Part shown: positions 275-12,842 of the stretch, one piece after another
Position numbering within the stretch: the stretch's first letter is position 1
Layout of the letters: each line of letters opens with the position of its first letter
From: an uncultured Acidobacteriota bacterium
Lineage (GTDB): Bacteria; Acidobacteriota; Thermoanaerobaculia; Gp7-AA8
Reading direction: 5' to 3'
DNA length: 12,842 nt
Assembly (NCBI GenBank): GCA_963741955.1
Contig: CAVUKB010000015.1
Location: forward strand, 1 to 12,842
Program-made: the position numbers and the translations under genes
The notes under the pieces: generated by a model
Database searches by the model: none
Told to the model about the DNA's origin: nothing
What the model saw: only the letters and a program-made list of their open reading frames with translations

Positions 275-334
275 GGAACGCCCATTGCACACGCAGATCC
301 GCGTTATTGAATGCAGGAGAACGGGGGGCAGAAC

Positions 335-1628
335 ATGAAAGCCGTCGTCTTTCACGCCATCGGGGACATCCGTCTGGAGGACGTTGCAGAGCCGAAAATT
401 CAGAAGCCGGACGGACGCCATCGTGCGGATCACCACCAGCGCCATCTGCGGAACCGACCTCCACATGATCCGCGGAACGCATGCCGGAAGCATGAAGAAT
501 GGGACGCATTCTCGGCCACGAGGGCGTCGGCATCGTGGAGGAAGTCGGCAGCGGATGTTCGCAACCTCCGCACGCGGTGACCGGGTCGTCATCCCTTCGA
601 CGATCGCCTGCGGTACCTGCTCCTACTGCCGTGCCGGGTACTACGCCCAGTGCGATCATGCGAACCCGAACGGTCCGAACGCCGGCACCGCGTTCTTCGG
701 AGGCCCCGAAGAGCAGCGGGTCCCTTCGACGGACTGCAGGCCGAGCATCGCACGGGTTCCTTACGCCAACATCGGACTGGTACGCGTACCGGACGAAGGT
801 TCGGACGATGATCAGGCGATTCTCGCTGTCGGACATCTTTCCGACCGGCTACATGGCCGCCGACATCGCGGAGATCGGGGCCGGGGACACGGTGGCCGTC
901 TTCGGTTGCGGACCGGTCGGGCAGTTCGCGATCGTGAGCGCGATGCTGCTCGGAGCGGGCCGCGTGATCGCCATCGATCGCGGTCGATTCGCGACTGGAC
1001 GATGGCGCGCGAGATCGGGGCCGAAGTCGTCAACTTCGAGCGTGAGGATCCCGTCGAGACGATCCGGCGAGCTGACCGGCGGAATCGGCGTGGACCGCGC
1101 GATCGACGCGGTCGGGAGTCGACGCCGAGACCGCCACCTCCGGACCGGCCGCACAGCGAAGCGAACAAGAAGAGCGACGAGTTCCGTGAGGAACGGAAGA
1201 CCGTCGCACCGGAGAAGCATCCCGAAAGGCGACCTCTGGCAGCCGGGCCATGCGCCGTCGCAGGTCATTGCAGTGGGCGGTGCAACTCGCTGGCCAAGGC
1301 CGGGACCCTCTCGATCATCGGTGTCTACTCCGCAGAAGCTCGAGACGGTTCCCGATCGGGAATGGCCATGAACCGCAACCTCACCCTGCAGATGGGCAAC
1401 TGCAATCACCGGAAGTACATCCCGATGCTGCTCGACCTCGTTCAAAGCGGAGCGGTCCGTCCGGACCGCGTGCTCACGCAGCATGCTCCGATGGCTTCGA
1501 TCATCGATGCGTATCAGCACTTCGACCAGCGCGAGCCCGGGTGGTTGAAAGTCGCCGTCGAGCCGTCGCAGGAGCGACACCGAGAACGGGTCGCGCGGGC
1601 CGAAGAAGAGAGACCGGAAATCCGCTGA
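335..1628 (+). CDS. Zinc-dependent medium-chain alcohol dehydrogenase (formaldehyde dehydrogenase-like MDR), broken by multiple frameshifts (likely sequence errors; pseudogene not excluded)
   Basis: Stitching frames 311/384/499/1250 gives [17 protein letters not shown]..., ICGTDLH (catalytic Zn Cys), [21 protein letters not shown] (structural Zn), LSDIFPTG, the GCGPVG Rossmann motif and a C-terminal GWLKVAV. ATG at 335, TGA at 1626-1628, roughly ten frame switches. Confidence 0.88.
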
Positions 1629-1760
1629 AGCGAACTTCATCAGAATCCAGGAGAGGACCGGACGGAAGATCCCGATTACTGCATATCGGAGTGCATTCTC
1701 AACGGCATCGCGGCGCGCTCTGCTCCGGCGGGGCGCAACGCAGCGCCGACGAGGCGTTCC

Positions 1761-2150
1761 TCAGCAGGTTCCGTGAGCGAGGAGCGCCACGTGCTTCCCT
1801 TCACCCAGAAGGCTGGTGAACGTCCGGCAGGCTTGGGGAGTCCGCTCGAGGCGGACGTCGGCGATGCCGTGATCCCGCAGTTCCTGAATGACGCTCTCCG
1901 GGCACTCGATCGCCCCATAGACGCCGACTCCGATCACCAGGGTGTCGATCCCGTGATCGTAGATGGCGGCGAGCATCGACGGGTTCAGGGAATGCCCCTT
2001 CCTCTCCTGCCACTCCGAGACCTCGTGCTCGATGACCCGGATGTCCTTTCCCATCCCGGTTTTTCCCTGCGGAGTTCGGGCATGTGTCTGGCCGAAGATG
2101 CTGAAGGTGCCCCAGTCGACCCATTCGACGCTCTCGGGAGTTCTTGCCAT
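1761..2150 (-). CDS. Mth938-like (DUF498/AAMDC family) protein
   Basis: 129 aa with strong AGGAGG RBS. It has the TLVIGVGVYG motif, a T-x-x-A-C helix and a C-terminal HGTC, resembling the HxTC terminus of AAMDC/Mth938 proteins. Confidence 0.8.
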   Translation of the reverse strand: MARTPESVEWVDWGTFSIFGQTHARTPQGKTGMGKDIRVIEHEVSEWQERKGHSLNPSMLAAIYDHGIDTLVIGVGVYGAIECPESVIQELRDHGIADVRLERTPQACRTFTSLLGEGKHVALLAHGTC

Positions 2151-2172
2151 TGAGTCTCCTCCTGTCCAAACC

Positions 2173-2203
2173 GGGCCGTGCGTGTCCGAACGGCCCCTTT
2201 TTT
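2173..2203 (+). terminator. Putative intrinsic terminator
   Basis: GGGCCGT (2173-2179) and ACGGCCC (2190-2196) form a stem, followed by C and TTTTTT (2198-2203). Confidence 0.5.
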
Positions 2204-2278
2204 GAAGATCGTTCCGAAACTACGGCTGTGCAAGAGTGGTGCGGGAGGAAAGGATCTCGCCTTTCCCGCCGCGGTCCG

Positions 2279-2284
2279 TATAAT
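2279..2284 (+). promoter_or_regulatory. Putative sigma70 -10 box for the 2-oxoacid dehydrogenase operon
   Basis: Perfect TATAAT in GC-rich intergenic DNA, ~240 bp upstream of E1 alpha. No convincing -35. Confidence 0.5.
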
Positions 2285-2524
2285 GTCGCGTCGAGCTCGT
2301 CCCGGAGGCGTTCGGGGCGGGCTGGATAGTTCGCAACCTCCGGTCCCGGGCGAGTCGAATGGATCGGAGCAGCGACGTCCCGGTCGTCTGACCGACGATC
2401 GTGCCGGTGATCCACCGGCGAGCACGCATCGTGAATCGTCAGCAGGAAGGCTCCCGGGCACCAACCGGATTCAGGTGGAGAGATCGGGAGGCGAACGCCC
2501 GTCCGGGCCGCCGGAGGAACCACA

Positions 2525-3568
2525 TTGACCGAACAGGCAGCGAACGCAGCAGAGATCGGCCTCCCGCGGGAGGCACTCCTCGAAATGGATTACTACATGA
2601 GGATGACGCGCTCGCTCGAAGAGCGGATCGTCATCCTTTTCAGGCAATCGAAGGTGATCGGCGGCATCTACCGCTCACTCGGACAGGAAGGTGAAGCGGT
2701 CGCGGCGGCATACGCGCTCGATTTCGCCCGCGGCGACGTCGTCTCTCCTCTGATCCGGAACATGGGAGCGATGCTCGTGGCGGGCGCGAAACCGCTGGAG
2801 ATCCTCCGTCAGTACATGGCGAAGGGAAACGCGCCTTCCCGCGGCCGCGATCTCAATATCCACTTCACCGATCTGGACCGCGGCTTCGTCGGCCCGATCT
2901 CGATGCTCGGCGACATGGTCTCGGTGATCTCCGGCGTGGTGCTCGCCCGTCGGATGCAGAAGCGCGACAGCGTGGGCATGGTGTTCATCGGAGACGGCGC
3001 CTCTTCGACCGGAGCGTTCGCCGAAGGGATGAACTTCGCCGCGGTGAAGAAACTCCCTCTGGTCGTGGTGATCGAAGACAACGGATACGCCTACTCGACA
3101 CCGACCTCACGACAGACCGCCGCGCGAACCCTCGCGGACAAGGCCATGGCGTACGGCTGTTTCGGCGAGACGGTGGATGGCAACGACCCAATCGCCGTCC
3201 ACCGCGCCGCCCGTGCCGCGGTGGATCGCGCCCGGCGTGGTGAAGGTGTGACCCTCCTCGAAGTGAAGACCTTCCGCATGCGCGGTCACGCGGAGCACGA
3301 CAATCAGGCCTACGTCCCGAAAGAGCTGATCGAGGAATGGAAGAAGAAGGATCCGATCGACCGCTTCGAGCGCTTCCTCCTCGATTCCGGAACGGCGTCC
3401 GAGGACGATCTCGAGCAGATCCGCGTGAGAATCCGTGCGGAGCTCGATCACGCGGTGCAGGAAGCGGAGGCGTCGCCGATGCCCCTTCCGGAGGAAGCGC
3501 AGTACGGCGTGTGGCACGGCGATGGTTTCTGGGAGAACCCGCCTCTCTGCGAGGGAGGTGAGCGATGA
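2525..3568 (+). CDS. 2-oxoacid dehydrogenase E1 component alpha subunit (PdhA/BkdA family, ThDP-dependent)
   Basis: TTG start after GGAGGA. Contains the GDGASSTG...EDNGYAYST ThDP-binding motif, GQEG, VDGND and the FRMRGHAEHD loop. Substrate (pyruvate vs branched-chain) is not resolvable. Confidence 0.95.
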   Translation: MTEQAANAAEIGLPREALLEMDYYMRMTRSLEERIVILFRQSKVIGGIYRSLGQEGEAVAAAYALDFARGDVVSPLIRNMGAMLVAGAKPLEILRQYMAKGNAPSRGRDLNIHFTDLDRGFVGPISMLGDMVSVISGVVLARRMQKRDSVGMVFIGDGASSTGAFAEGMNFAAVKKLPLVVVIEDNGYAYSTPTSRQTAARTLADKAMAYGCFGETVDGNDPIAVHRAARAAVDRARRGEGVTLLEVKTFRMRGHAEHDNQAYVPKELIEEWKKKDPIDRFERFLLDSGTASEDDLEQIRVRIRAELDHAVQEAEASPMPLPEEAQYGVWHGDGFWENPPLCEGGER

Positions 3569-4563
3569 CCGCCGAAGCTCCGAAAGCGGGTGGCGAGACT
3601 TCTTACGTCGAAGCGATCCGTCAGGCGATGTGGGAAGAGATGGAACGCGACGAGCGCGTCTTCCTCATCGGCGAGGACGTCGGAATCTACGGAGGCGCCT
3701 TCAAGACCAGCGCCGGACTTCTCGACCGCTTCGGCGAGGAGAGAGTGATCGACACGCCGATCTCGGAGACCGCGATCGTCGGCGCGGCCGCAGGAGCCGC
3801 GATGGCCGGGATGCGGCCCATCGCCGAGATGCAGTTCATCGACTTCATCTCCGTCGCATTCGACCAGCTGACCAACTTCGCCTCGAAGCTGCGATACCGC
3901 AACGGCTACGGCTGTCCTCTCGTCGTGCGCGGCCCTTCGGGTGGCGGCGTCCACGGCGGACCGTTCCACTCCGGCAATCCGGAAGCTTTCTTCTTCAACA
4001 CCCCGGGGCTGAAGATCGTCGCGCCGGGAACGGCGCGTGACGCCAAGGGACTGCTGAAAGCGGCGATCCGCGACGAGGATCCCGTGATCTACCTCGAGCA
4101 CAAATTCCTCTACCGCCGGATCAAAGAAGAGCTCCCGGCGGACGACTTCGTCGTGCCGATCGGAAAGGCCAACGTTCGTCGTGAAGGAAAGGACCTCACC
4201 ATTCTCACCTGGGGAGCGATGAACTACGTGGCGGACGAGGCGGCGGACGAGCTCGCGAAAGATGGGGTTTCCGTGGAGATCGTCGATCTCCGGTCGATCC
4301 GTCCGTTCGACGAGGAGACGATCCTCGCGTCGGTGGCGAAGACCAACCGCGCGATCATTCTCCACGAAGCGCCGCTCACGGGCGGAGCAGGGGGCGAGTT
4401 CGCAGCACGGATCGCGGAGAAGGCATTCGAATACCTCGACGCACCGATCCGCCGCGTCGCGTCGAACGACACGCCTCCTCCCTATTCACCGCCGCTCGAG
4501 GAGTTCTTCCTCCCGAACAGGGAGAAGCTCCTTGCGGTTGCGAAGGAGCTGTTGCGCTACTGA
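3565..4563 (+). CDS. 2-oxoacid dehydrogenase E1 component beta subunit (PdhB/BkdB family)
   Basis: ATGA overlap with E1 alpha. Motifs GEDVG..GG, DTPISE, EMQFIDF, GGGVHGGPFHS (more like branched-chain enzymes), EHKFLY and DLRSIRPFD. Confidence 0.96.
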   Translation: MTAEAPKAGGETSYVEAIRQAMWEEMERDERVFLIGEDVGIYGGAFKTSAGLLDRFGEERVIDTPISETAIVGAAAGAAMAGMRPIAEMQFIDFISVAFDQLTNFASKLRYRNGYGCPLVVRGPSGGGVHGGPFHSGNPEAFFFNTPGLKIVAPGTARDAKGLLKAAIRDEDPVIYLEHKFLYRRIKEELPADDFVVPIGKANVRREGKDLTILTWGAMNYVADEAADELAKDGVSVEIVDLRSIRPFDEETILASVAKTNRAIILHEAPLTGGAGGEFAARIAEKAFEYLDAPIRRVASNDTPPPYSPPLEEFFLPNREKLLAVAKELLRY

Positions 4564-4683
4564 TGGGAACGCCGTGTGCAAAGTTGACACGCGACCCCGG
4601 AAGCGGAAGGATTGAATCTCGCGCTCGCGTGAAGGGCGTCTGCGCGTGAAGAGAAATCGAGCGAACGAAGGACGAAGCGAGAC

Positions 4684-6054
4684 ATGGCTACCGATGTCGT
4701 AATGCCACAGATGGGCGAGTCGATCGCCGAGGGAACGATCTCCCGCTGGATCAAGAAGCCGGGAGAGAAGGTGGAACGGGACGAACCGATTCTCGAGATC
4801 TCGACCGACAAGGTCGACGCGGAGATTCCGGCGCCGGTCTCGGGGACGCTCACCGAGGTCCTGGCGAACGAAGGGGACACCGTCCCGGTCAACAGCGTGA
4901 TCGCGAGAATCGCGGCGGAAGGAGAAGCCGCACCGCCCCCGCAGGCCGCACCGGCACCGAAGCCGGAGGCGACGCACCCCTCTGAACCCGCCGAGCAGCC
5001 CCAGGCTGCGGCGCCGCAGCCGAAGCCGTCCGCTCCGGAACCGGCAGCTGCACCACAGCCGGCGCCGCAGGCCTCGCCGGCGCCGCAGGCCGAGGAGAAC
5101 GTCACGTCCCTCGAGGAACGGCGCCGCACCAGGTCCTCTCCGCTGGTCCGGAAGATCGCACGCGAGAACGACATCGACATCTCGCAGATCGAAGGGAGCG
5201 GCGTCTCGGGAAGAGTGACGAAAGACGACATCCTCGAGTACATGGAGCGGCCGCGAGCAGCAGCGTCCGTACAGCCGGCTCCGCAACCGCGACCCTCCTC
5301 TCCTCCCGCCGCGCCGCAGCGAGAGCCGGGGCAGCCATCCGCGTCTCCCGGGGGCGAGAACATCCGGATCGAGCCGATGTCCGTCATGCGCAAGAAGATC
5401 GCCGATCACATGGTCTTCTCCAAACGGACCTCCGCACACGTCAGTACCGTGTTCGAGGTCGACTTCACCGCGATCGACCGACTGCGCAAACAGCACAAGG
5501 CTTCCTATGCGGAGCGAGGCGTCAGCCTGACCTACATGGCGTTCATCATCCAGGCGGTGATCACGGCATTGCGCGAGTTCCCCATCATCAACTCGTCGAT
5601 CGACGGCGACAACATCATCTATAAAGACGATCTGAACATCGGCATCGCCGTCGCGCTCGATTGGGGACTGATCGTTCCCGTCCTCAAGCGCGCCGACGAG
5701 AAGAACATCCTCGGGATCGCGCGCTCGATCAGCGAGCTCGCCGAACGCGCCCGCACCAAGAAGCTCAATCCGGAGGACGTACAGGGCGGGACATTCACGA
5801 TTACCAATCCCGGCGTCTACGGCGGTCTCTTCGGACTTCCGATCATCAACCAGCCGCAGGTCGCGATTCTCGGAGTCGGAGGAGTGAAGAAGCGTCCGGT
5901 GGTGGTGGAGACGGAGGCCGGCGACGCGATCGTGGTCCGCTCCATGTGCTATCTCTCGCTCACCTTCGATCATCGAATCATCGACGGCGCGGTGGCGGAC
6001 CAGTTCATGGCCAGAGTGCGGTCCATCATCGAGGCGGGACAGTACAGCCTGTAA
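4684..6054 (+). CDS. Dihydrolipoamide acyltransferase (E2) of a 2-oxoacid dehydrogenase complex
   Basis: Single lipoyl domain (EISTDKVDAEIPAP), Pro/Ala linker, E3-binding domain (SSPLVRKIARE...GSGVSGRVTKDD), second linker and catalytic domain with GGTFTITN, PIINQPQ and DHRIIDG. Confidence 0.96.
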   Translation: MATDVVMPQMGESIAEGTISRWIKKPGEKVERDEPILEISTDKVDAEIPAPVSGTLTEVLANEGDTVPVNSVIARIAAEGEAAPPPQAAPAPKPEATHPSEPAEQPQAAAPQPKPSAPEPAAAPQPAPQASPAPQAEENVTSLEERRRTRSSPLVRKIARENDIDISQIEGSGVSGRVTKDDILEYMERPRAAASVQPAPQPRPSSPPAAPQREPGQPSASPGGENIRIEPMSVMRKKIADHMVFSKRTSAHVSTVFEVDFTAIDRLRKQHKASYAERGVSLTYMAFIIQAVITALREFPIINSSIDGDNIIYKDDLNIGIAVALDWGLIVPVLKRADEKNILGIARSISELAERARTKKLNPEDVQGGTFTITNPGVYGGLFGLPIINQPQVAILGVGGVKKRPVVVETEAGDAIVVRSMCYLSLTFDHRIIDGAVADQFMARVRSIIEAGQYSL

Positions 6055-6105
6055 GGGCGGCCGCTCGCGCGCGGAGACGGTGCAACACTGAGCTCCATTC
6101 TCACG

Positions 6106-6769
6106 GTGATCTTCCTGGTGGTCCTCGCGATCGTCGTCCCGGCGCTCGCGTGGATGAGCCGCCGTGCGCTCGAGAGCGGGAGCTCGGATTCCGCGGCTCC
6201 CGCTCTACGCAGAGGTGGTGGTCCTCCAGCTTCTCCTCTTCGGGCTGGCGATGCTGGTGGCGTGGAGCGGAGGACCTCGATCTTCAGCCGCCGGGCCCTC
6301 GACTCCCGATGGGTGGGTCGCCTGCGCGCTCCTCCTCGTGATTGCCACCGTCGCGATGTTGCTGAACCTCCGGTTCGGAACCGCCGAGCAGGATGATCCT
6401 CTCTACCGCATCGCTCCCGAGTCGATGAACGGAGAGAAGCTCGCATGGATCGGCGTTTCGTGCGTCGCGGGAGTGAGTGAAGAGGTGGTCTACCGCGGTG
6501 TGGCGTACGTCGTGATCCAGCGCCTGGTGCACGGGATCTGGCCTCCGATCCTGATCGCATCCGTGCTGTTCGGCATGGCGCACCTGACCCAGGGCATCCG
6601 CCGCAGCGCGCTGGTCGCGCTCTTCGGATTCGGCTTTCACCTCGTCGTCCTCTACTCCGGAAGCCTCTACCCCGCTTTCGTGGTTCACGCTTTGTATGAC
6701 ATCCTCGCCGGACTGGCGCTCGCCCGCGATCGCCGCCGGAGGAACTGGACCGAACATGCGACTCTGTGA
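6106..6769 (+). CDS. CPBP family (CAAX/Abi) intramembrane glutamic endopeptidase, with one frameshift near 6180
   Basis: The hydrophobic N-terminus in ORF 6106 joins ORF 6164. Motifs SEEVVYRG, LFGMAH and VVHALYD, plus several TM segments. Start codon uncertain. Confidence 0.85.
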
Positions 6770-7847
6770 GCTGCGCAATCTCGATCTCGTCACCTATGAG
6801 AACGGCATGCGGATGCAGCAGGAGCTGGTGACGCTCCGTCAGGAAGAGCGCATCCCCGACCAGCTCCTCCTTCTCCAGCATCCTCCGGTGATCACGCTCG
6901 GACGCAGCGGGCACTTAGAGAACCTCCTCGCGTCGCCAACCGCCCTCGCCATGGAAGGGGTGCGCTTCTACGAGACGACCCGCGGCGGCGACATCACGTA
7001 TCACGGACCCGGGCAGCTCGTCGGCTATCCCCTGATCTCGCTGGGTGAGGGACGCCGGGACGTCCGCCGCTACGTGACGAACCTCGAGGAAGTCATCATC
7101 CGCACCGTCGGAGCTTTCGGCATCGAAGCAGGGCGCTGGGAAATACACCGTGGTGTCTGGGTCGGACGCGAGAAGATCGCCGCGATCGGAGTCCGCGTCG
7201 CGAAATGGGTCACTTCCCACGGCTTCGCACTCAATGTCGATCCGAACCTCGATCACTTCAACCTGATCACTCCCTGCGGGATCCGGGATGCAGGAGTCAC
7301 GTCGATCGCCAGGCTCACCGGACGGAAGATCACGGTGGAGAAAGTCCGTGAAGCGCTCGTCCCGCATTTCGCGGAGGTTTTCGAACGGGAGGTCCGCCCC
7401 GCGCATCCCGATCTCGCCCTGGTGAAGGTCGTCGTGCACGACGGCTCTCGCATTCTCCTCCTCCACCGGCGTCCCGATTCGGGCGATTTCTGGCAGCCGA
7501 TCACTGGACGGATCGAAGCCGGCGAAGCTGCCGAAGCCGCGGCACGACGGGAGATCGTGGAAGAGACGGGAATGGGTGGAGAGCCGGAAGGCCTCGATCT
7601 CCGGCAGTCGTTCCTGATCGAGGCGAAGTACCTGAAGAACGCCTCGGATCTCCCGATCTTCGCGGACGAGATCGCGTTCGCGGCACGGATCGATGCGTCG
7701 CGAGCGCTTCGTCTCGACGCTGCAGAGCACGACCGCTACGGCTGGTTCTCCACCGACGAGGCGCTCGCGAAGATCCGATGGAGCGACGACCGCGAAGCGA
7801 TCGAGCGGCTCAGGCTTCGAGCGTTCTCGGCCGCTCCGGTGGGATGA
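6756..7847 (+). CDS. lipB: Octanoyltransferase LipB fused to a C-terminal Nudix hydrolase domain
   Basis: ATG 6756 after GGAGGA. LipB motifs HPPVITLGR, RGGDITYHGPGQLVGYP, KIAAIG, HGFALN and PCG. From ~7420 in the same frame: LLLHRR..FWQPITG and the Nudix box GRIEAGEAAEAAARREIVEETG. Confidence 0.93.
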   Translation: MRLCELRNLDLVTYENGMRMQQELVTLRQEERIPDQLLLLQHPPVITLGRSGHLENLLASPTALAMEGVRFYETTRGGDITYHGPGQLVGYPLISLGEGRRDVRRYVTNLEEVIIRTVGAFGIEAGRWEIHRGVWVGREKIAAIGVRVAKWVTSHGFALNVDPNLDHFNLITPCGIRDAGVTSIARLTGRKITVEKVREALVPHFAEVFEREVRPAHPDLALVKVVVHDGSRILLLHRRPDSGDFWQPITGRIEAGEAAEAAARREIVEETGMGGEPEGLDLRQSFLIEAKYLKNASDLPIFADEIAFAARIDASRALRLDAAEHDRYGWFSTDEALAKIRWSDDREAIERLRLRAFSAAPVG

Positions 7848-7892
7848 CCCGGCGTCCTCGGCCGGTTGTCACCCGATGAGAGATCGAAACGC

Positions 7893-8789
7893 ATGATCAA
7901 CAAACGCGCAGGAGAACGGCCCGAGTGGCTGAAGATTCGTGTCCCCGGAGACCTCGACCGCCTGCCGGTGACCCGACTGATCAACGACCTCGCCCTCAAT
8001 ACCGTCTGCCAGGAAGCCCGCTGTCCCAACATCTTCGAATGCTGGGCCGCAGGAACGGCGACGTTCATGATCCTCGGCGAGGTCTGCACCCGCCGCTGCA
8101 CGTTCTGCGCAGTGACGAAGGGCGCACCACTCCACGCGGATCCCGGCGAGCCGCGCCGGGTGGCGGAGGCGGTCGCGAAAATGAAAGTGCGACATGCGGT
8201 GATCACCACGGTGAACCGCGACGACCTTCCCGATGGCGGGGCGGAGCATTTCGCGAAGACGATCGAAGAGGTTCAGGAGCGGAGCGGCGCTTCGGTCGAG
8301 GCGCTGATCTCGGATCTGGAAGGCGATCGTGAAGCGCTCCGGACGATCCTGGCCGCGCGTCCAAGGTGCTCGCTCACAACATCGAGACGATTCCGCGGCT
8401 CTATCCGCAGGTGCGGCCGACGGCGAAGTACCACCGTTCGCTCGATATCCTCCGCTGGGCCTCCGAGGAGCGGCACGAGGGGATGCTGACCAAGTGCAGC
8501 ATCATGCTCGGGCTCGGAGAGAGCCCTGAAGAGGTCCTGGAGGTCGCTGCAGATCTCCGGGAGGCAGGTGTGGACGTCTTCACCATGGGTCAGTATCTCG
8601 CTCCGACGGAACGGAACCACCCGGTGCGGAGGTACGGCTGCCCGAGGAGTTCCGGGAGCTCGGCCGGGCGGCGAAACGACTCGGTTTCCAGCACGTCGAG
8701 TGGGACCTCTGGTCCGGAGTTCCTATATGGCGCATCGTGCCGTAGAATCTTCGGCCTGCCCCGCCGACGCGGAGAGCGGACTCGGATGA
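7893..8789 (+). CDS. lipA: Lipoyl synthase (radical SAM), frameshifted near 8360 and 8640-8700
   Basis: RPEWLK, CQEARCPNIFEC (auxiliary cluster CX4CX5C), CTRRCTFC (radical SAM) and RDDLPDGGA, then HNIET and GQYLAPT in ORF 8366 and GPLVRSSY in ORF 8568, ending at TGA 8787-8789. Confidence 0.93.
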
Positions 8790-8793
8790 CACG

Positions 8794-9070
8794 ATGCCTC
8801 GAGTGACGTTCGAAGATCAGGAGCAGACTGCCGACTTCGAGCCCGAACGAACACTCCTGAGCTGCGCCATCGAAATGGGGGTTGGATCAGCCATGTCTGC
8901 GGTGGCGACGGCGCCTGCGGCACGTGCCGCATCGCCGTAGTCGACGGATGGGACAAGCTCTCCCCTCCGACGCCCGATGAGACGTACAAGGAGCTCGAGC
9001 CGCCATACCGGTCAGCTGCCAGGCGAAGCTGAAAGGCGACGTCGTGGTGAAAGTCGCAAAAATCGAGTGA
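8794..9070 (+). CDS. [2Fe-2S] ferredoxin (absent from the ORF track because of two indels)
   Basis: Manual translation: MPRVTFEDQEQTADFEPERTLLSCAIEMGV / ISHVCGGDGACGTCRIAVVDGWDKLSPPTPDETYKELEPPYR / SCQAKLKGDVVVKVAKIE-stop. It has the CX5CX2C...R(L)SCQ motif; indels near 8885 and 9011. Confidence 0.88.
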
Positions 9071-9079
9071 GAGGAAGTC

Positions 9080-9575
9080 ATGACGGAAACCGTATCGACG
9101 ATGACCGAGACCGAACAGAGGCTGGGACTCGTTTTCCAATACACGGTCGAAGCCTACAAGGTGTTCGAGAAGCTTGCTGAAGTGCTGCCGAATCCCGTGA
9201 CCGCGGCGATGTTCGAGAACTTCGCCGAGGATGAGAGGGGCCTTCGCGATCTGCTGGAGATCAAGTATTCGGCGGGACATGCGCGGGAAGATCACTCTCG
9301 GCGCAGATCTGCGCTACCTCGACATGGTGGAGGGCGATCTCTCGTATCGCGAGATGACCGAGATGATGATCGCGCGCGAGCGGGCGATGGAGAAGAAGCT
9401 GAACGAATGGGTGACGAACGGATCGGAGTCCGATCGCAACCTCTTCGCTATCTGGCGGCGACCAAGCGCGCTCATCTCGTATTTCTCGACCGCGAGCTGA
9501 CGCTGATCCAGTTCTATCCCCAGTGGTTCCGCCGCGAAGACGCCGAGTCGCTCATCGTGCACGGAACTTCCGAAA
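9080..9575 (+). CDS. Ferritin-like/rubrerythrin-fold helical protein with a degenerate metal site; frameshifted, 3' end uncertain
   Basis: GAGG RBS and ATG 9080. EAYKVFEKLAE...AMFENFAEDERGL and, after switching to ORF 9231 and back, ARERAMEKKL...DRNLFRYLAATKRAH match the two-repeat helix pattern of rubrerythrin-like proteins. Confidence 0.55.
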
Positions 9576-9867
9576 AATCAGCCCAACATCTCCATCACTC
9601 CGGAGGCCTCCGCCCGATTGCAGAGCGATCTGCAGGGGGGAGTCCTCCGGATCTCCTTCACCACCGGATGTGGAGGGAGCGGCTACCGGATTGCGTCTTC
9701 CTCCGCCCCCTGGATGAGGATGTGGTGGTGGAGGCGGAGAGGTCGTGGTTGCCCTCGACCAGATGGCGGCGCGCAACCTGGATGGCGCGGAGATCGTGTA
9801 CGCCGAGGAAGAATCGGGCTATTCGATCCGCCATCCGAATGCGGTCAGCGCGGTCTGGTGCGGCTGA
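9576..9867 (+). CDS. HesB/IscA-like (A-type Fe-S carrier fold) domain; frameshifted, no start codon of its own visible
   Basis: Stitched translation: NISITPEASARLQSDLQGGVLRISFTTGCGGSGYRIASSSAP/LDEDVVVEAE/VVVALDQMAARNLDGAEIVYAEEESGYSIRHPNAVSAVWCG-stop. This follows the IscA pattern ITxxA...LRI...GCxG.Y...D....LDG..I.Y......F...NPNA...CGCG. Confidence 0.75.
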
Positions 9868-9893
9868 ACCGCTGGCAAGAGATCTCCGATCGG

Positions 9894-10388
9894 TCAGACG
9901 AATCGCGGCTCCGACGTCCCCAGGATCCCTCCGCGATTGAGAAGCACCAGCTCGAGCTCACGAATCTGCGAGCTGTTTCCCGAGCGGAGAATCATTCTGC
10001 AATCGGTCAGCGGAAAGAATGGATCACGCTGCAGAAGGTAATCCGAGACTCTGACTCCGGTTCCCACCCAGAGCGTGCCACTGATCACTCCCCCGTTGAA
10101 CGCGCACGAAACATCTTTCTCGTTGGCGTTCGCCACGACTTTCGCGCTCGGCTCGGGGATGTCGGGAATGATCAGGATCACCGTCCGGCGCTGCAGAGCG
10201 AAGAACGGCACCCGTTTTTCGAGCCCCGGAAGGGCCACGTCTTTCAATTTGAAAAAGTCGTGCTGGTGATTGACGTAGTCGGTGAGGCTTCGCCGGGCCG
10301 GAACCATGAACCAGCCCCGAACCCATCCTGCGGTCGTCAGAAGCTGTGCCCCGAGGTCACGTTGAGTCGGAGGCGTGTACTGACTCAT
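9894..10388 (-). CDS. Hypothetical protein with two tandem copies of a small beta-rich domain (DUF6812-like)
   Basis: ATG at 10388 preceded by GGAG; 164 aa. Repeat 1 is GWVRGWFMVPARRSLTDYVN..DFFKLKD..FFALQRRTV and repeat 2 is GVISGTLWVGTGVRVSDYLL..PFFPLTD..LVLLNRGGI. The family name is from memory of the motif. The ORF-track extension to 10586 runs into the repeat array and is probably spurious. Confidence 0.7.
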   Translation of the reverse strand: MSQYTPPTQRDLGAQLLTTAGWVRGWFMVPARRSLTDYVNHQHDFFKLKDVALPGLEKRVPFFALQRRTVILIIPDIPEPSAKVVANANEKDVSCAFNGGVISGTLWVGTGVRVSDYLLQRDPFFPLTDCRMILRSGNSSQIRELELVLLNRGGILGTSEPRFV

Positions 10389-10544
10389 GCTCCACTCCGC
10401 GATCGGAGTCGCCTCCACCGGACCCTGTGATCCGTGGCGCAGCGGCGGCGATGCCGGATCCTCTATATCGGTACCGTCGCATTCTACAGGTTCTGCAGAT
10501 CCGAAACCGAACGGAGATTCCGGGACAGCCGCGCCGGGACGGGA

Positions 10545-12842
10545 GCCAGCGCCGGGGGAGCGCGGATCCTCTGATCCGCACGCCACACTCGCGTTCAGAT
10601 CGGATCGAGACCATCCCTGCGGCAGAAGCGGAGCTGTTCGCTCGAGACGCTGGAACCACCGACGCTTCGCGCACAGCCACAGCCTTCGTCTTCATCGCGT
10701 ACAACACGATTCGCGCGGCGGATCGGAGGATCCGCACCCCCTTCGAACGCGTGCGGCGGATCGCGCCGGCGCCGGGGGAAGCCAGCGCCGGGGGAGCGCG
10801 GATCCTCTGATCCGCACGCCACACTCGCGTTCAGATCGGATCGAGACCATCCCTGCGGCAGAAGCGGAGCTGTTCGCTTGAGACGCTGGAACCACCGACG
10901 CTTCGCGCACAGCCGCAGCCTTCCTCTTCATCGCGTACAACACGATTCGCGCGGCGGATCGGAGGATCCGCACCCCTTCGAACGCGTGCGGCGGAACGCG
11001 CCGGGGGGACCAGCGCCGGGGGAGCGCGGATCCTTCCGATCCGCACGCCACACTCGCGTTCAGATCGGATCGAGACATCCCTGCGGCAGAAGCGGAGCTG
11101 TTCGCTCGAGACGCTGGAACCACCGACGCTTCGCGCACAGCCGCAGCCTTCGAGTTCATCGCGTACAACACGATTCGCGCGGCGGACGGAGGATCCGCAT
11201 CCCTTCGAACGCGTGCGGCGGAACGCGCCGGGGGGAGCCAGCGCCGGGGGAGCGCGGATCCTCTGATCCGCACGCCACACTCGCGTTCAGATCGGATCGA
11301 GACCATCCCTGCGGCAGAAGCGGAGCTGTTCGCTTGAGACGCTGGAACCACCGACGCTTCGCGCACAGCCGCAGCCTTCGTCTTCATCGCGTACAACACG
11401 ATTCGCGCGGCGGATCGGAGGATCCGCACCCCCTTCGAACGCGTGCGGCGGATCGCGCCGGGGGAAGCCAGCGCCGGGGGAGCGCGGATACCTGATCCGC
11501 ACGCCACACTCGCGTTCAGATCGGATCGAGACCATCCCTGCGGCAGAAGCGGAGCTGTTCGCTCCAGACGCTGGAACCACCGACGCTTCGCGCACGGCCA
11601 CAGCCTTCCTCTTCCTCACGTACAACACGATTCGCGCGGCGGATCGGAGGATCCGCACCCCCTTCGAACGCGTGCGGCGGATCGCGCGGGGGAAGCCAGC
11701 GCCGGGGGAGCGCGGATCCTCTGATCCGCACGCCACACTCGCGTTCAGATCGGATCGAGACCATCCCTGCGGCAGAAGCGGAGCTGTTCGCTCGAGACGC
11801 TGGAACCACCGACGCTTCGCGCACAGCCACAGCCTTCCTCTTCATCACGTACAACACGATTCGCGCGGCGGATCGGAGGATCCGCACCCCCTTCAACGCG
11901 TGCGGCGGATCGCGCCGGGGAAGCCAGCTCCGGGGAGCGCGGATCCTCTGATCCGCACGCCACACTCGCGTTCAGATCGGATCGAGACCATCCCTGCGGC
12001 AGAAGCGGAGCTGTTCGCTCGAGACGCTGGAACCACCGACGCTTCGCGCACAGCCGCAGCCTTCCTCTTCATCGCGTACAACACGATTCGCGCGGCGGAT
12101 CGGAGGATCCGCACCCCCTTCGAACGCGTGCGGCGGATCGCGCCGGGGGAAGCCAGCGCCGGGGGAGCGCGGATCCTCTGATCCGCACGCCACACTCCCG
12201 TTCAGATCGGATCGAGACCATCCCTGCGGCAGAAGCGGAGCTGTTCGCTCGAGACGCTGGAACCACCGACGCTTCGCGCACAGCCGCAGCGCGTCTTCAT
12301 CACGTACAACACGATTCGCGCGGCGGATCGGAGGGTCCGCACCCCCTTCGAACGCGTGCGGCGGATCGCGCCGGGGGAAGCCAGCGCCGGGGAGCGCGGA
12401 TCCTCTGATCCCACGCGACACTCGCGTTCAGATGGGATCGAGACCATCCCTGCGGCAGAAGCGGAGCTGTTCGCTTGAAACGCTGGAACCACCGACGCTT
12501 CGCGCACAGCCACAGCCTTCCTCTTCATCGCGTACAACACGATTCGCGCGGCGGATCGGAGGATCCGCACCCCCTTCGAACGCGTGCGGCGGATCGCGCC
12601 GGGGGAAGCCAGCGCCGGGGGAGCGCGGATCCTCTGATCCGCACGCCACACTCGCGTTCAGATCGGATCGAGACCATCTCTGCGGCAGAAGCGGAGCTGT
12701 TCGCTCGAGACGCTGGAACCACCGACGCTTCGCGCACAGCCGCAGCCTTCCTCTTCATCGCGTACAACACGATTCGCGCGGCAGATCGGAGGATCCGCAC
12801 CCCCTTCGAACGCGTGCGGCGGATCGCGCCGGGGGAAGCCAG
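10545..12842. repeat. Tandem array of ~230-bp units (10 complete plus the start of an 11th), REP-doublet/BIME-like, truncated by the window end
   Basis: The anchor GCCAGCGCCGGGGGAGCGCGGATCC (or a close variant) recurs at ~10545, 10781, 11009, 11237, 11467, 11695, 11923, 12152, 12380, 12608 and 12838, with periods of 228-236. Units are near-identical and have no unique spacers. Confidence 0.95.

Follow-up and report, generated by a model that had tools for sequence, protein, structure and literature searches.

Contig CAVUKB010000015.1 (assembly GCA_963741955.1), from an uncultured bacterium of the Acidobacteriota class Thermoanaerobaculia, is 12,842 bp long and was analysed in its entirety as a single window. 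Its right end is occupied by a tandem array of about ten head-to-tail copies of a 230-nt non-coding unit, each of which is built around two 18-bp palindromes in inverted orientation. The array is best described as a large-unit, highly amplified array of the repetitive extragenic palindrome (REP) or bacterial interspersed mosaic element (BIME) kind, that is, as a putative and unusually large member of a repeat type already known, rather than as a new system. Bacteria seldom have long satellite-like arrays whose units measure a few hundred base pairs, and such arrays usually break assemblies. A literature search for tandem palindromic repeats of this satellite-like kind in bacteria yielded nothing relevant among the papers listed. 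The array and the parts of its unit are as follows:

10530..12842, no strand assigned: tandem array with a unit consensus of 230 nt in 10.1 copies, extending to the contig end
12533..12762, forward strand: cleanest complete unit, exactly 230 nt, 1 substitution relative to the consensus
12551..12568, no strand assigned: palindrome H1 (GCGGATC-GGAG-GATCCGC) as found in the reference unit; each unit has one
Starts at 10718, 10954, 11410, 11639, 11868, 12095, 12323 and 12781: other copies of H1
12625..12642, no strand assigned: palindrome H2 (GCGGATC-CTCT-GATCCGC) as found in the reference unit; each unit has one
Starts at 10562, 10798, 11254, 11712, 11939, 12169 and 12396: other copies of H2
12551..12642, no strand assigned: doublet resembling a REP doublet forming hairpins (REPIN), with arms 12551-12574 and 12619-12642 around a 44-nt segment, 92 nt in total
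12643..12762, no strand assigned: non-palindromic rest of the unit, ~138 nt when the 18 nt before the next H1 are included

Tandem Repeats Finder reports a single array at 10530-12842 with a period of 228, 10.1 copies, 95% matches, 1% indels and a score of 4195. A second repeat search places 10 copies in register with a start-to-start spacing of 226-236, and a 20-nt anchor sequence occurs 10 times, only in the array, at a spacing of 227-236. These counts agree with the at least ten head-to-tail copies claimed in an initial annotation of this DNA. Its statement that the cleanest units measure 230 bp also holds, since the unit at 12533-12762 is exactly of that length, as is the majority consensus obtained from a MAFFT alignment of the units. 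The array lies roughly where that annotation had placed it, with a start at ~10530 instead of 10545; the distance to the gene at 9894-10388, given there as ~155 bp, was measured as ~142 bp from the ATG of the gene. The left edge falls inside the segment between the two palindromes, so that the leftmost unit is without H1. On the right, the array reaches the end of the contig, the window being the entire 12,842-bp contig.

The nine complete units are 91-98% identical in pairwise comparisons, with 34 substitutions and 21 indel columns among them. In nine variable columns (five substitutions and four one-base gaps), the minor state is common to two or three units. Because the units differ by both substitutions and indels, some with minor states in two or three units, they are genuine diverged copies. 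Many of the differences in unit length are one-base changes within runs of C or G, and these changes, together with apparent frameshifts in two conserved genes of the window, mean that the exact unit lengths and the copy number are only approximate.

The array is non-coding. The GC contents at the first, second and third codon positions of six genes of the window are ~0.62-0.71, 0.44-0.47 and 0.72-0.82, whereas codon position 2 reaches 0.64-0.73 in all six frames of the unit. With a codon table built from five of the window genes, the log-likelihood per codon is 0.33-0.61 for these training genes, 0.13 for the held-out gene adjoining the array, which belongs to the DUF6812 family, and -0.31 to +0.10 for the unit frames. 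Position-specific GC and codon log-likelihood thus bear out, in all six frames, the earlier proposal that the array is non-coding. That proposal had been argued from a unit length that is not a multiple of 3; the conclusion is right, and the argument is insufficient because a train of ~77-codon minus-strand open reading frames (ORFs), with each stop overlapping the next start, also fits 230 nt. A coding array, made up either of such overlapping small genes or of a repeat protein whose frame was broken by sequencing errors, is nevertheless hardly credible. Long ORFs do arise in the array and were predicted by gene callers, and the ORFs of a relative's array (see below) keep one frame through more than two units. 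However, stop codons are so sparse (in a perfect consensus array, one per three units in each plus-strand frame and two in each minus-strand frame) that ORFs of 149-271 codons appear in the array, and none of the six frames has the codon signature of the window genes. The translations are Arg/Ser-rich, and a scan of the array ORFs gave no Pfam, NCBIfam or PADLOC family; their sole PHROGs match is that of P0007 to one family of unknown function (E 2e-06, 29 bits). The relatives do not have the frame relation between units that the window has, and no ORF structure is conserved. Unlike the DUF6812 protein of the relative, for which the source annotation gives an accession, the array ORFs of the relative have none recorded.

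Within each unit, H1 and H2 have identical 7-bp stems and 4-nt loops, and their starts are 74 nt apart. Together with their flanks, the two palindromes form an inverted repeat whose 24-nt arms are 88% complementary and stand 44 nt apart. Two more such motifs are present: a GCGGATC heptamer, the third of the unit, between the palindromes and, as the fourth, a CGGATC hexamer directly after H2. Overall, the heptamer occurs at 10.8/kb in the array versus 0.28/kb outside it. The 18-bp palindrome described in the initial annotation is real: there are 17 matches with at most 2 mismatches, all of them within 10562-12798, against a chance mean of 0.49. A reading of the GATC clustering as a Dam/SeqA-type signal was rejected in favour of a contig-wide trinucleotide bias, as GATC outside the array was observed 149 times versus 33.5 expected from base composition and 138.3 expected from a second-order model. 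Within 300-10400, GATC and TCGA each stand at ~4 times the base-composition expectation, which is explained by the same kind of bias, and CTAG was observed 0 times, with 33.5 expected from base composition and 2.8 from the second-order model.

Each strand of the unit is predicted to fold into one long hairpin and a second stem-loop (-104 and -115 kcal/mol). The z-scores of these folds, only about -2, are the same for the two strands, which is what an inverted repeat at the DNA level would give. A search of the whole window against Rfam (cmscan, E <= 1) gave no match in the array and two weak matches, both outside it. No tRNA or tmRNA genes were found in the window, no promoter-like or terminator-like sites were found in 9800-12842, and the unit has no blastn match in the plasmid and phage collections searched. 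An integron attC array was considered by eye and rejected: here the ‘cassette’ would be what is conserved and the hairpin loop what varies, the reverse of the attC order.

Related arrays are present on four other contigs, of 1,466,178, 11,901, 125,974 and 705,193 bp. The relatives are known from ORF translations, and comparisons with them are therefore at the residue level. A search with a minus-strand array ORF found three ORFs on the 1,466,178-bp contig, with a cluster mate on the 11,901-bp contig; a HMMER search added a 481-aa ORF on the 125,974-bp contig, and a plus-strand array ORF found a 342-aa ORF on the 705,193-bp contig. By tblastn, the ORFs of all these relatives could be located on the array, with E values as low as 1e-82, and the 1,466,178-bp contig has at least three array ORFs with a total of 712 residues. 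Two further proteins, P0028 (1272 aa) and P0029 (279 aa), match an array ORF weakly (E 6e-5 and 4.5e-4); they are translations of long tandem repeats of another kind on megabase contigs, apparently without relation to the array, and the unit of P0028 measures ~160 residues by eye. The comparison with the closest relative involves two features to the left of the array:

10389..10529, no strand assigned: unique spacer from the DUF6812 gene to the array; an array ORF of a close relative extends into it
9894..10388, reverse strand: DUF6812 gene, 164 aa, predicted to form two tandem small beta-barrels, with its start ~142 bp from the array

The 1,466,178-bp contig belongs to a metagenome-assembled genome (MAG) of the Thermoanaerobaculia; it encodes MGA7616396.1 and carries a DUF6812 protein 98% identical to that of the window, which points to an origin of the window in the Acidobacteriota. 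The ORF at the boundary of its array (P0004) aligns beyond the array edge of the window into the unique spacer, down to 10494. Because of the 98% identical DUF6812 protein and this boundary ORF, the array can be placed at the same locus in an independent assembly. The palindromes and their adjoining blocks are conserved in the translations of the relatives. The best-conserved part of the related arrays is the first 50-60 nt after H2, and a 26-residue stretch covering part of H2 and ~65 nt after it is identical in the ORF of the 705,193-bp contig. The middle of the 138-nt remainder is less conserved, and the segment between the palindromes varies (15, 25 and 36 residues in one frame, one of these with an A+T-rich insert), in a residue-level map that is itself noisy owing to the palindromes. 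Which units adjoin the array boundary is not the same in the two assemblies of the close relative.

Since related arrays occur on four contigs, one of them at the same locus, the array is real, older than one strain and fast-changing. It is very improbable that the array, or the bulk of its copies, arose artificially in assembly, as a concatemer or through wrong resolution of a repeat where the contig ends. The array does end the contig, and the apparent frameshifts in the genes for alcohol dehydrogenase and lipoyl synthase, along with the one-base differences in C/G runs, suggest an error-prone assembly. However, the related arrays lie on independent contigs, in one case inside a contig of 1,466,178 bp, and substitutions are common to units that are not adjacent.

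The same palindrome is found in other genomes, where it is associated with REP-like clusters and transposase genes. A hairpin-doublet pattern derived from the unit identified 79 loci (numbered with the prefix L) in representative genomes of the Genome Taxonomy Database (GTDB). In several Chloroflexota MAGs, the palindrome forms dispersed short tandem clusters at dozens of sites with periods of ~35-80 nt, and higher-order periods of ~192 nt in these loci (72+120 and 79+113) resemble the 74+156 arrangement of the window. Another MAG (L013, L033 and L064) contains inverted doublets whose arms are 72-75 nt apart and whose G/C runs point inward, like those of the window; one arm of these doublets matches the H2 region with 85.7% identity over 28 nt (E 0.011). 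After six loci with CRISPR arrays and one duplicate had been dropped, 72 loci were analysed for flanked ORFs. In these loci, 281 ORFs of 90-400 aa have a hairpin at most 400 nt from an end, and five of them are flanked on both sides. Only these five were scanned for domains, and three of the five, from three different MAGs, match the Pfam family Y1_Tnp of IS200-like transposases (E 1e-9 to 1.5e-7, above the curated cut-off), with hairpins ~15-60 nt from the genes. Palindrome clusters with a 35-nt period tightly flank the Y1 genes at L034:9183-10404, L067:6161-7069 and L009:26-833, and many palindrome copies at L034 read CGTC from the last stem base. A 2013 survey reported that no dedicated transposase goes with CGTC-tagged REPs (PMC3733652). 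The likeness of the array to the 79 loci is confined to the hairpin and its flank, because the loci were selected by the palindrome and none matches the whole unit (blastn, E <= 1e-3, 0 matches).

The six CRISPR loci belong to Candidatus Poriferisodalis. A relation of the window to CRISPR through these loci was rejected: they are true CRISPR arrays whose 36-nt repeat contains a CGGATC-N4-GATCCG core, and only this palindrome core is in common. Their arrays are very long, as at L010:9989-23171 (182 palindrome matches), and also at L001, L023, L049, L063 and L077.

These data are consistent with a unit that consists of a REPIN/BIME-like doublet and ~138 bp of captured sequence, amplified in tandem, an account to which we give an even chance of being correct. 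According to this model, two 18-bp palindromes in inverted orientation, 74 nt apart, would have formed the doublet, ~138 bp would have been captured beside it, and the whole 230-bp block would then have been multiplied head to tail. Amplification could have proceeded by cleavage and strand transfer (‘rolling-circle-like’), as proposed for the action on BIMEs of TnpA-REP, a Y1 transposase of the HUH (histidine-hydrophobe-histidine) type also called REP-associated tyrosine transposase (RAYT), or else through slippage during replication or unequal recombination of the ordinary kind between copies. The copies would later have diverged through point changes and through changes in the linker between the palindromes. 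TnpA-REP cleaves at sites in the inverted REP (iREP) and linker, and its strand transfer can assemble tandem BIMEs, vary their linkers and capture flanking sequence (PMC3333891). A Y1 transposase may act, or have acted, on the hairpins in this lineage, and the array probably serves the cell in no dedicated way, apart from side effects that it may have on the adjacent gene.

The suggestion in the initial annotation of an amplified REP-doublet array gains support from the inverted doublet and the occurrence of its palindrome elsewhere in dispersed mini-arrays, in REPIN-like doublets and beside Y1 genes; the GTAG or CGTC tag is absent. REPs are normally dispersed over intergenic regions and present in high copy number, and those associated with a RAYT have a Y1 transposase gene with the same palindromes on its flanks (REPtron). 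Several observations weigh against the amplified-doublet model. Neither tag stands beside the stems of H1 and H2 on either strand, none of the 17 palindrome matches lies in the other 10.5 kb of the contig, and no Y1 transposase domain was found among 57 scanned ORFs of the 12.8-kb window. With its 230-bp unit, 138-bp conserved non-palindromic part and at least 10 copies, the array exceeds the clusters at the palindrome-pattern loci, for which the longest higher-order period is ~192 nt. Those loci were themselves chosen by the palindrome, and the unit has no blastn similarity to them. The conservation across lineages of the 50-60 nt after H2 could reflect a function outside the REP model, and occurrence at the same locus and beside the same gene in a close relative would also be expected of a locus-specific functional element.

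Two kinds of function were weighed. The array might be transcribed into a long modular structured RNA, or into many ~230-nt RNAs, that work with the adjacent DUF6812 protein, a predicted tandem Sm-like protein. This is fairly unlikely, and a functional link between the DUF6812 protein and the array is hypothetical. A distance of 142 bp separates the DUF6812 gene from the array, and the close relative has the same arrangement. An AlphaFold model of the protein is confident (pLDDT 89.1, pTM 0.84) and consists of two similar small beta-barrels, and its best fold matches in the Protein Data Bank (PDB), obtained with Foldseek, are RNA-binding Sm/LSm proteins (E 0.014-0.06) with target-normalised template-modelling scores of 0.55-0.70 over ~71-93 columns. 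The length-variable region of the unit would form the loop of the long hairpin, and tandem arrays of small RNA (sRNA) genes exist, NsiR1 being an example (PMC9045159). Conversely, none of the Foldseek matches is as good as E <= 0.001, small barrels being a fold of common occurrence, and searching PDB sequences with a profile returned nothing at E <= 10. The absence of an Rfam match and of promoter-like or terminator-like sites, as well as fold z-scores that are weak and equal on both strands, also argue against an RNA. In diverged arrays the stems are conserved as sequence, with no compensatory change seen. No DUF6812 homologue was found in the 79 palindrome-pattern loci, and the longest contig of no DUF6812 homologue cluster matches the array contigs of 125,974 and 705,193 bp, in a search that reaches exact-word relatives only. 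A more specific version, in which a conserved multi-module structured RNA or single-stranded DNA locus has its hairpin modules bound by rings of the predicted tandem Sm-like DUF6812 protein, is distinctly unlikely; if true, it would amount to a bacterial RNA-protein system that was built from a REP-derived satellite and is tuned by a fast-evolving copy number.

A cluster of protein-binding sites at the DNA level, with a centromere-like, titrating or nucleoid-organising role, is more doubtful still. A dimeric binder would occupy the palindromes, each taken as two half-sites one helical turn apart, as well as the extra half-sites. The two perfect palindromes per unit, with the third heptamer and the fourth hexamer, would suit such a binder, as would the equivalence of the strands in folding and the conservation in diverged arrays of the palindrome sequence itself, beyond its pairing. 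However, the window contains no DNA-binding or partition gene, the neighbours being genes for 2-oxoacid dehydrogenase and lipoate metabolism, and the palindrome behaves elsewhere as a dispersed REP tied to Y1 transposases. Any likeness to plasmid centromere repeats is putative.

The remaining part of the contig codes for the E1 alpha, E1 beta and E2 subunits of a 2-oxoacid dehydrogenase, a CPBP-type protease, a LipB-NUDIX fusion, a lipoyl synthase and a DUF498 protein. The fusion is ORF 6696-7847, with a lipoyl(octanoyl) transferase catalytic domain followed by a C-terminal NUDIX domain. Apparent frameshifts affect a zinc alcohol dehydrogenase gene (384-1628), in which ADH_N and ADH_zinc_N lie in two overlapping frames, and the lipoyl synthase gene (7866-8806), in which the radical-SAM domain is split over two overlapping ORFs; both are either assembly indel errors or signs of pseudogenes. 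No Y1 transposase, reverse transcriptase, nuclease or cas domain was found in 57 scanned ORFs of the window. The left contig end carries heptamer repeats, with (GAGAGGC)x5 at 4-39 and runs of CTCCCTT and CTCTCGC at 163-272, the latter in 11.7 copies. Read in another register, CTCTCGC is the reverse complement of GAGAGGC, so that the blocks would pair in inverted orientation around an A+T-rich stretch. With heptamer repeats on the left and the array on the right, both ends of the contig stop in repeats. In 18 of 19 clusters of DUF6812 homologues (P0008-P0026), the longest contig is at most 7,260 bp; an adjoining repeat may often break short-read assemblies at the DUF6812 gene, or the sources may only be of low coverage.

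The origin of the array can be traced to a hairpin doublet of the REP type. Confirmation of a Y1 transposase in the lineage would make the array a natural example of tandem BIME amplification with capture of flanking sequence, in a little-studied class of the Acidobacteriota. The locus differs between closely related strains and could serve as a typing marker, and the array offers a first testable lead for the uncharacterised DUF6812 family, on which a literature search found no paper.

Several known systems resemble the array in part. CRISPR arrays have regularly spaced palindromic hairpins, and the palindrome core of the window is found in the 36-nt repeat of Candidatus Poriferisodalis. In contrast, the array is without unique spacers, its hairpins are inverted and not direct, and its period is 230 nt. 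A CRISPR identity was rejected, in agreement with the initial annotation, as all ten units have the same inter-palindrome sequence and the window contains no cas genes or cas domains. In the NsiR1 sRNA genes, each repeat is a short transcription unit, whereas no promoter-like or terminator-like signals were found in the array. The likeness to NsiR1, as described for Nostoc, is that of head-to-tail non-coding repeats beside a gene (PMC9045159).

A further comparison is with the terminal inverted repeats (TIRs) that flank the genes of TIR-associated tyrosine transposases (TIRYTs), including a group from Acidobacteria. These are long inverted repeats, some of them self-complementary, that occur as dimers or clusters (PMC3733652). 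They carry a shared motif, GGGGWSAS (PMC3733652), which the array arms, with GGGGAGCG and GGGGTGCG beside the stem, match at 7 of 8 positions; the match is imperfect and judged by eye, and serves as a lead only. REPINs, as presented in two reports (PMC3116915, PMC3337134), are dispersed single elements mobilised by a single-copy RAYT, whereas the doublet of the window is known only inside one tandem array. Its 92-nt doublet nevertheless resembles a REPIN, and the layout and arm sequence are matched by the dispersed doublets of another MAG.

The closest parallel is with REPs and BIME-2 elements. REPs are 20-40-nt palindromes, often in inverted pairs with a linker, and BIME-2 elements are present in multiple tandem copies (PMC3333891). 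Two REP superfamilies are described in the 2013 survey, defined by a GTAG or a CGTC tag (PMC3733652). The unit of the window has a short, G+C-rich stem-loop palindrome (18 bp, two per unit) and an inverted pair with a linker of 44 nt, repeated 10 times, without either tetranucleotide at the palindrome end. Compared with BIME-2 and TnpA-REP as described in two reports (PMC3333891, PMC2817692), the array differs in its 230-bp unit, of which ~138 bp are conserved and non-palindromic, in its at least 10 copies, in its lack of GTAG and in its perfect 7-bp stems, and no dispersed copies or transposase are seen in the available 12.8 kb. On the other hand, the two have in common G+C-rich inverted palindrome pairs with a linker, a head-to-tail arrangement and linker variability. 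TnpA-REP also supplies a published route for tandem amplification and flank capture (PMC3333891), and the palindrome of the array flanks Y1 transposase genes in other MAGs.

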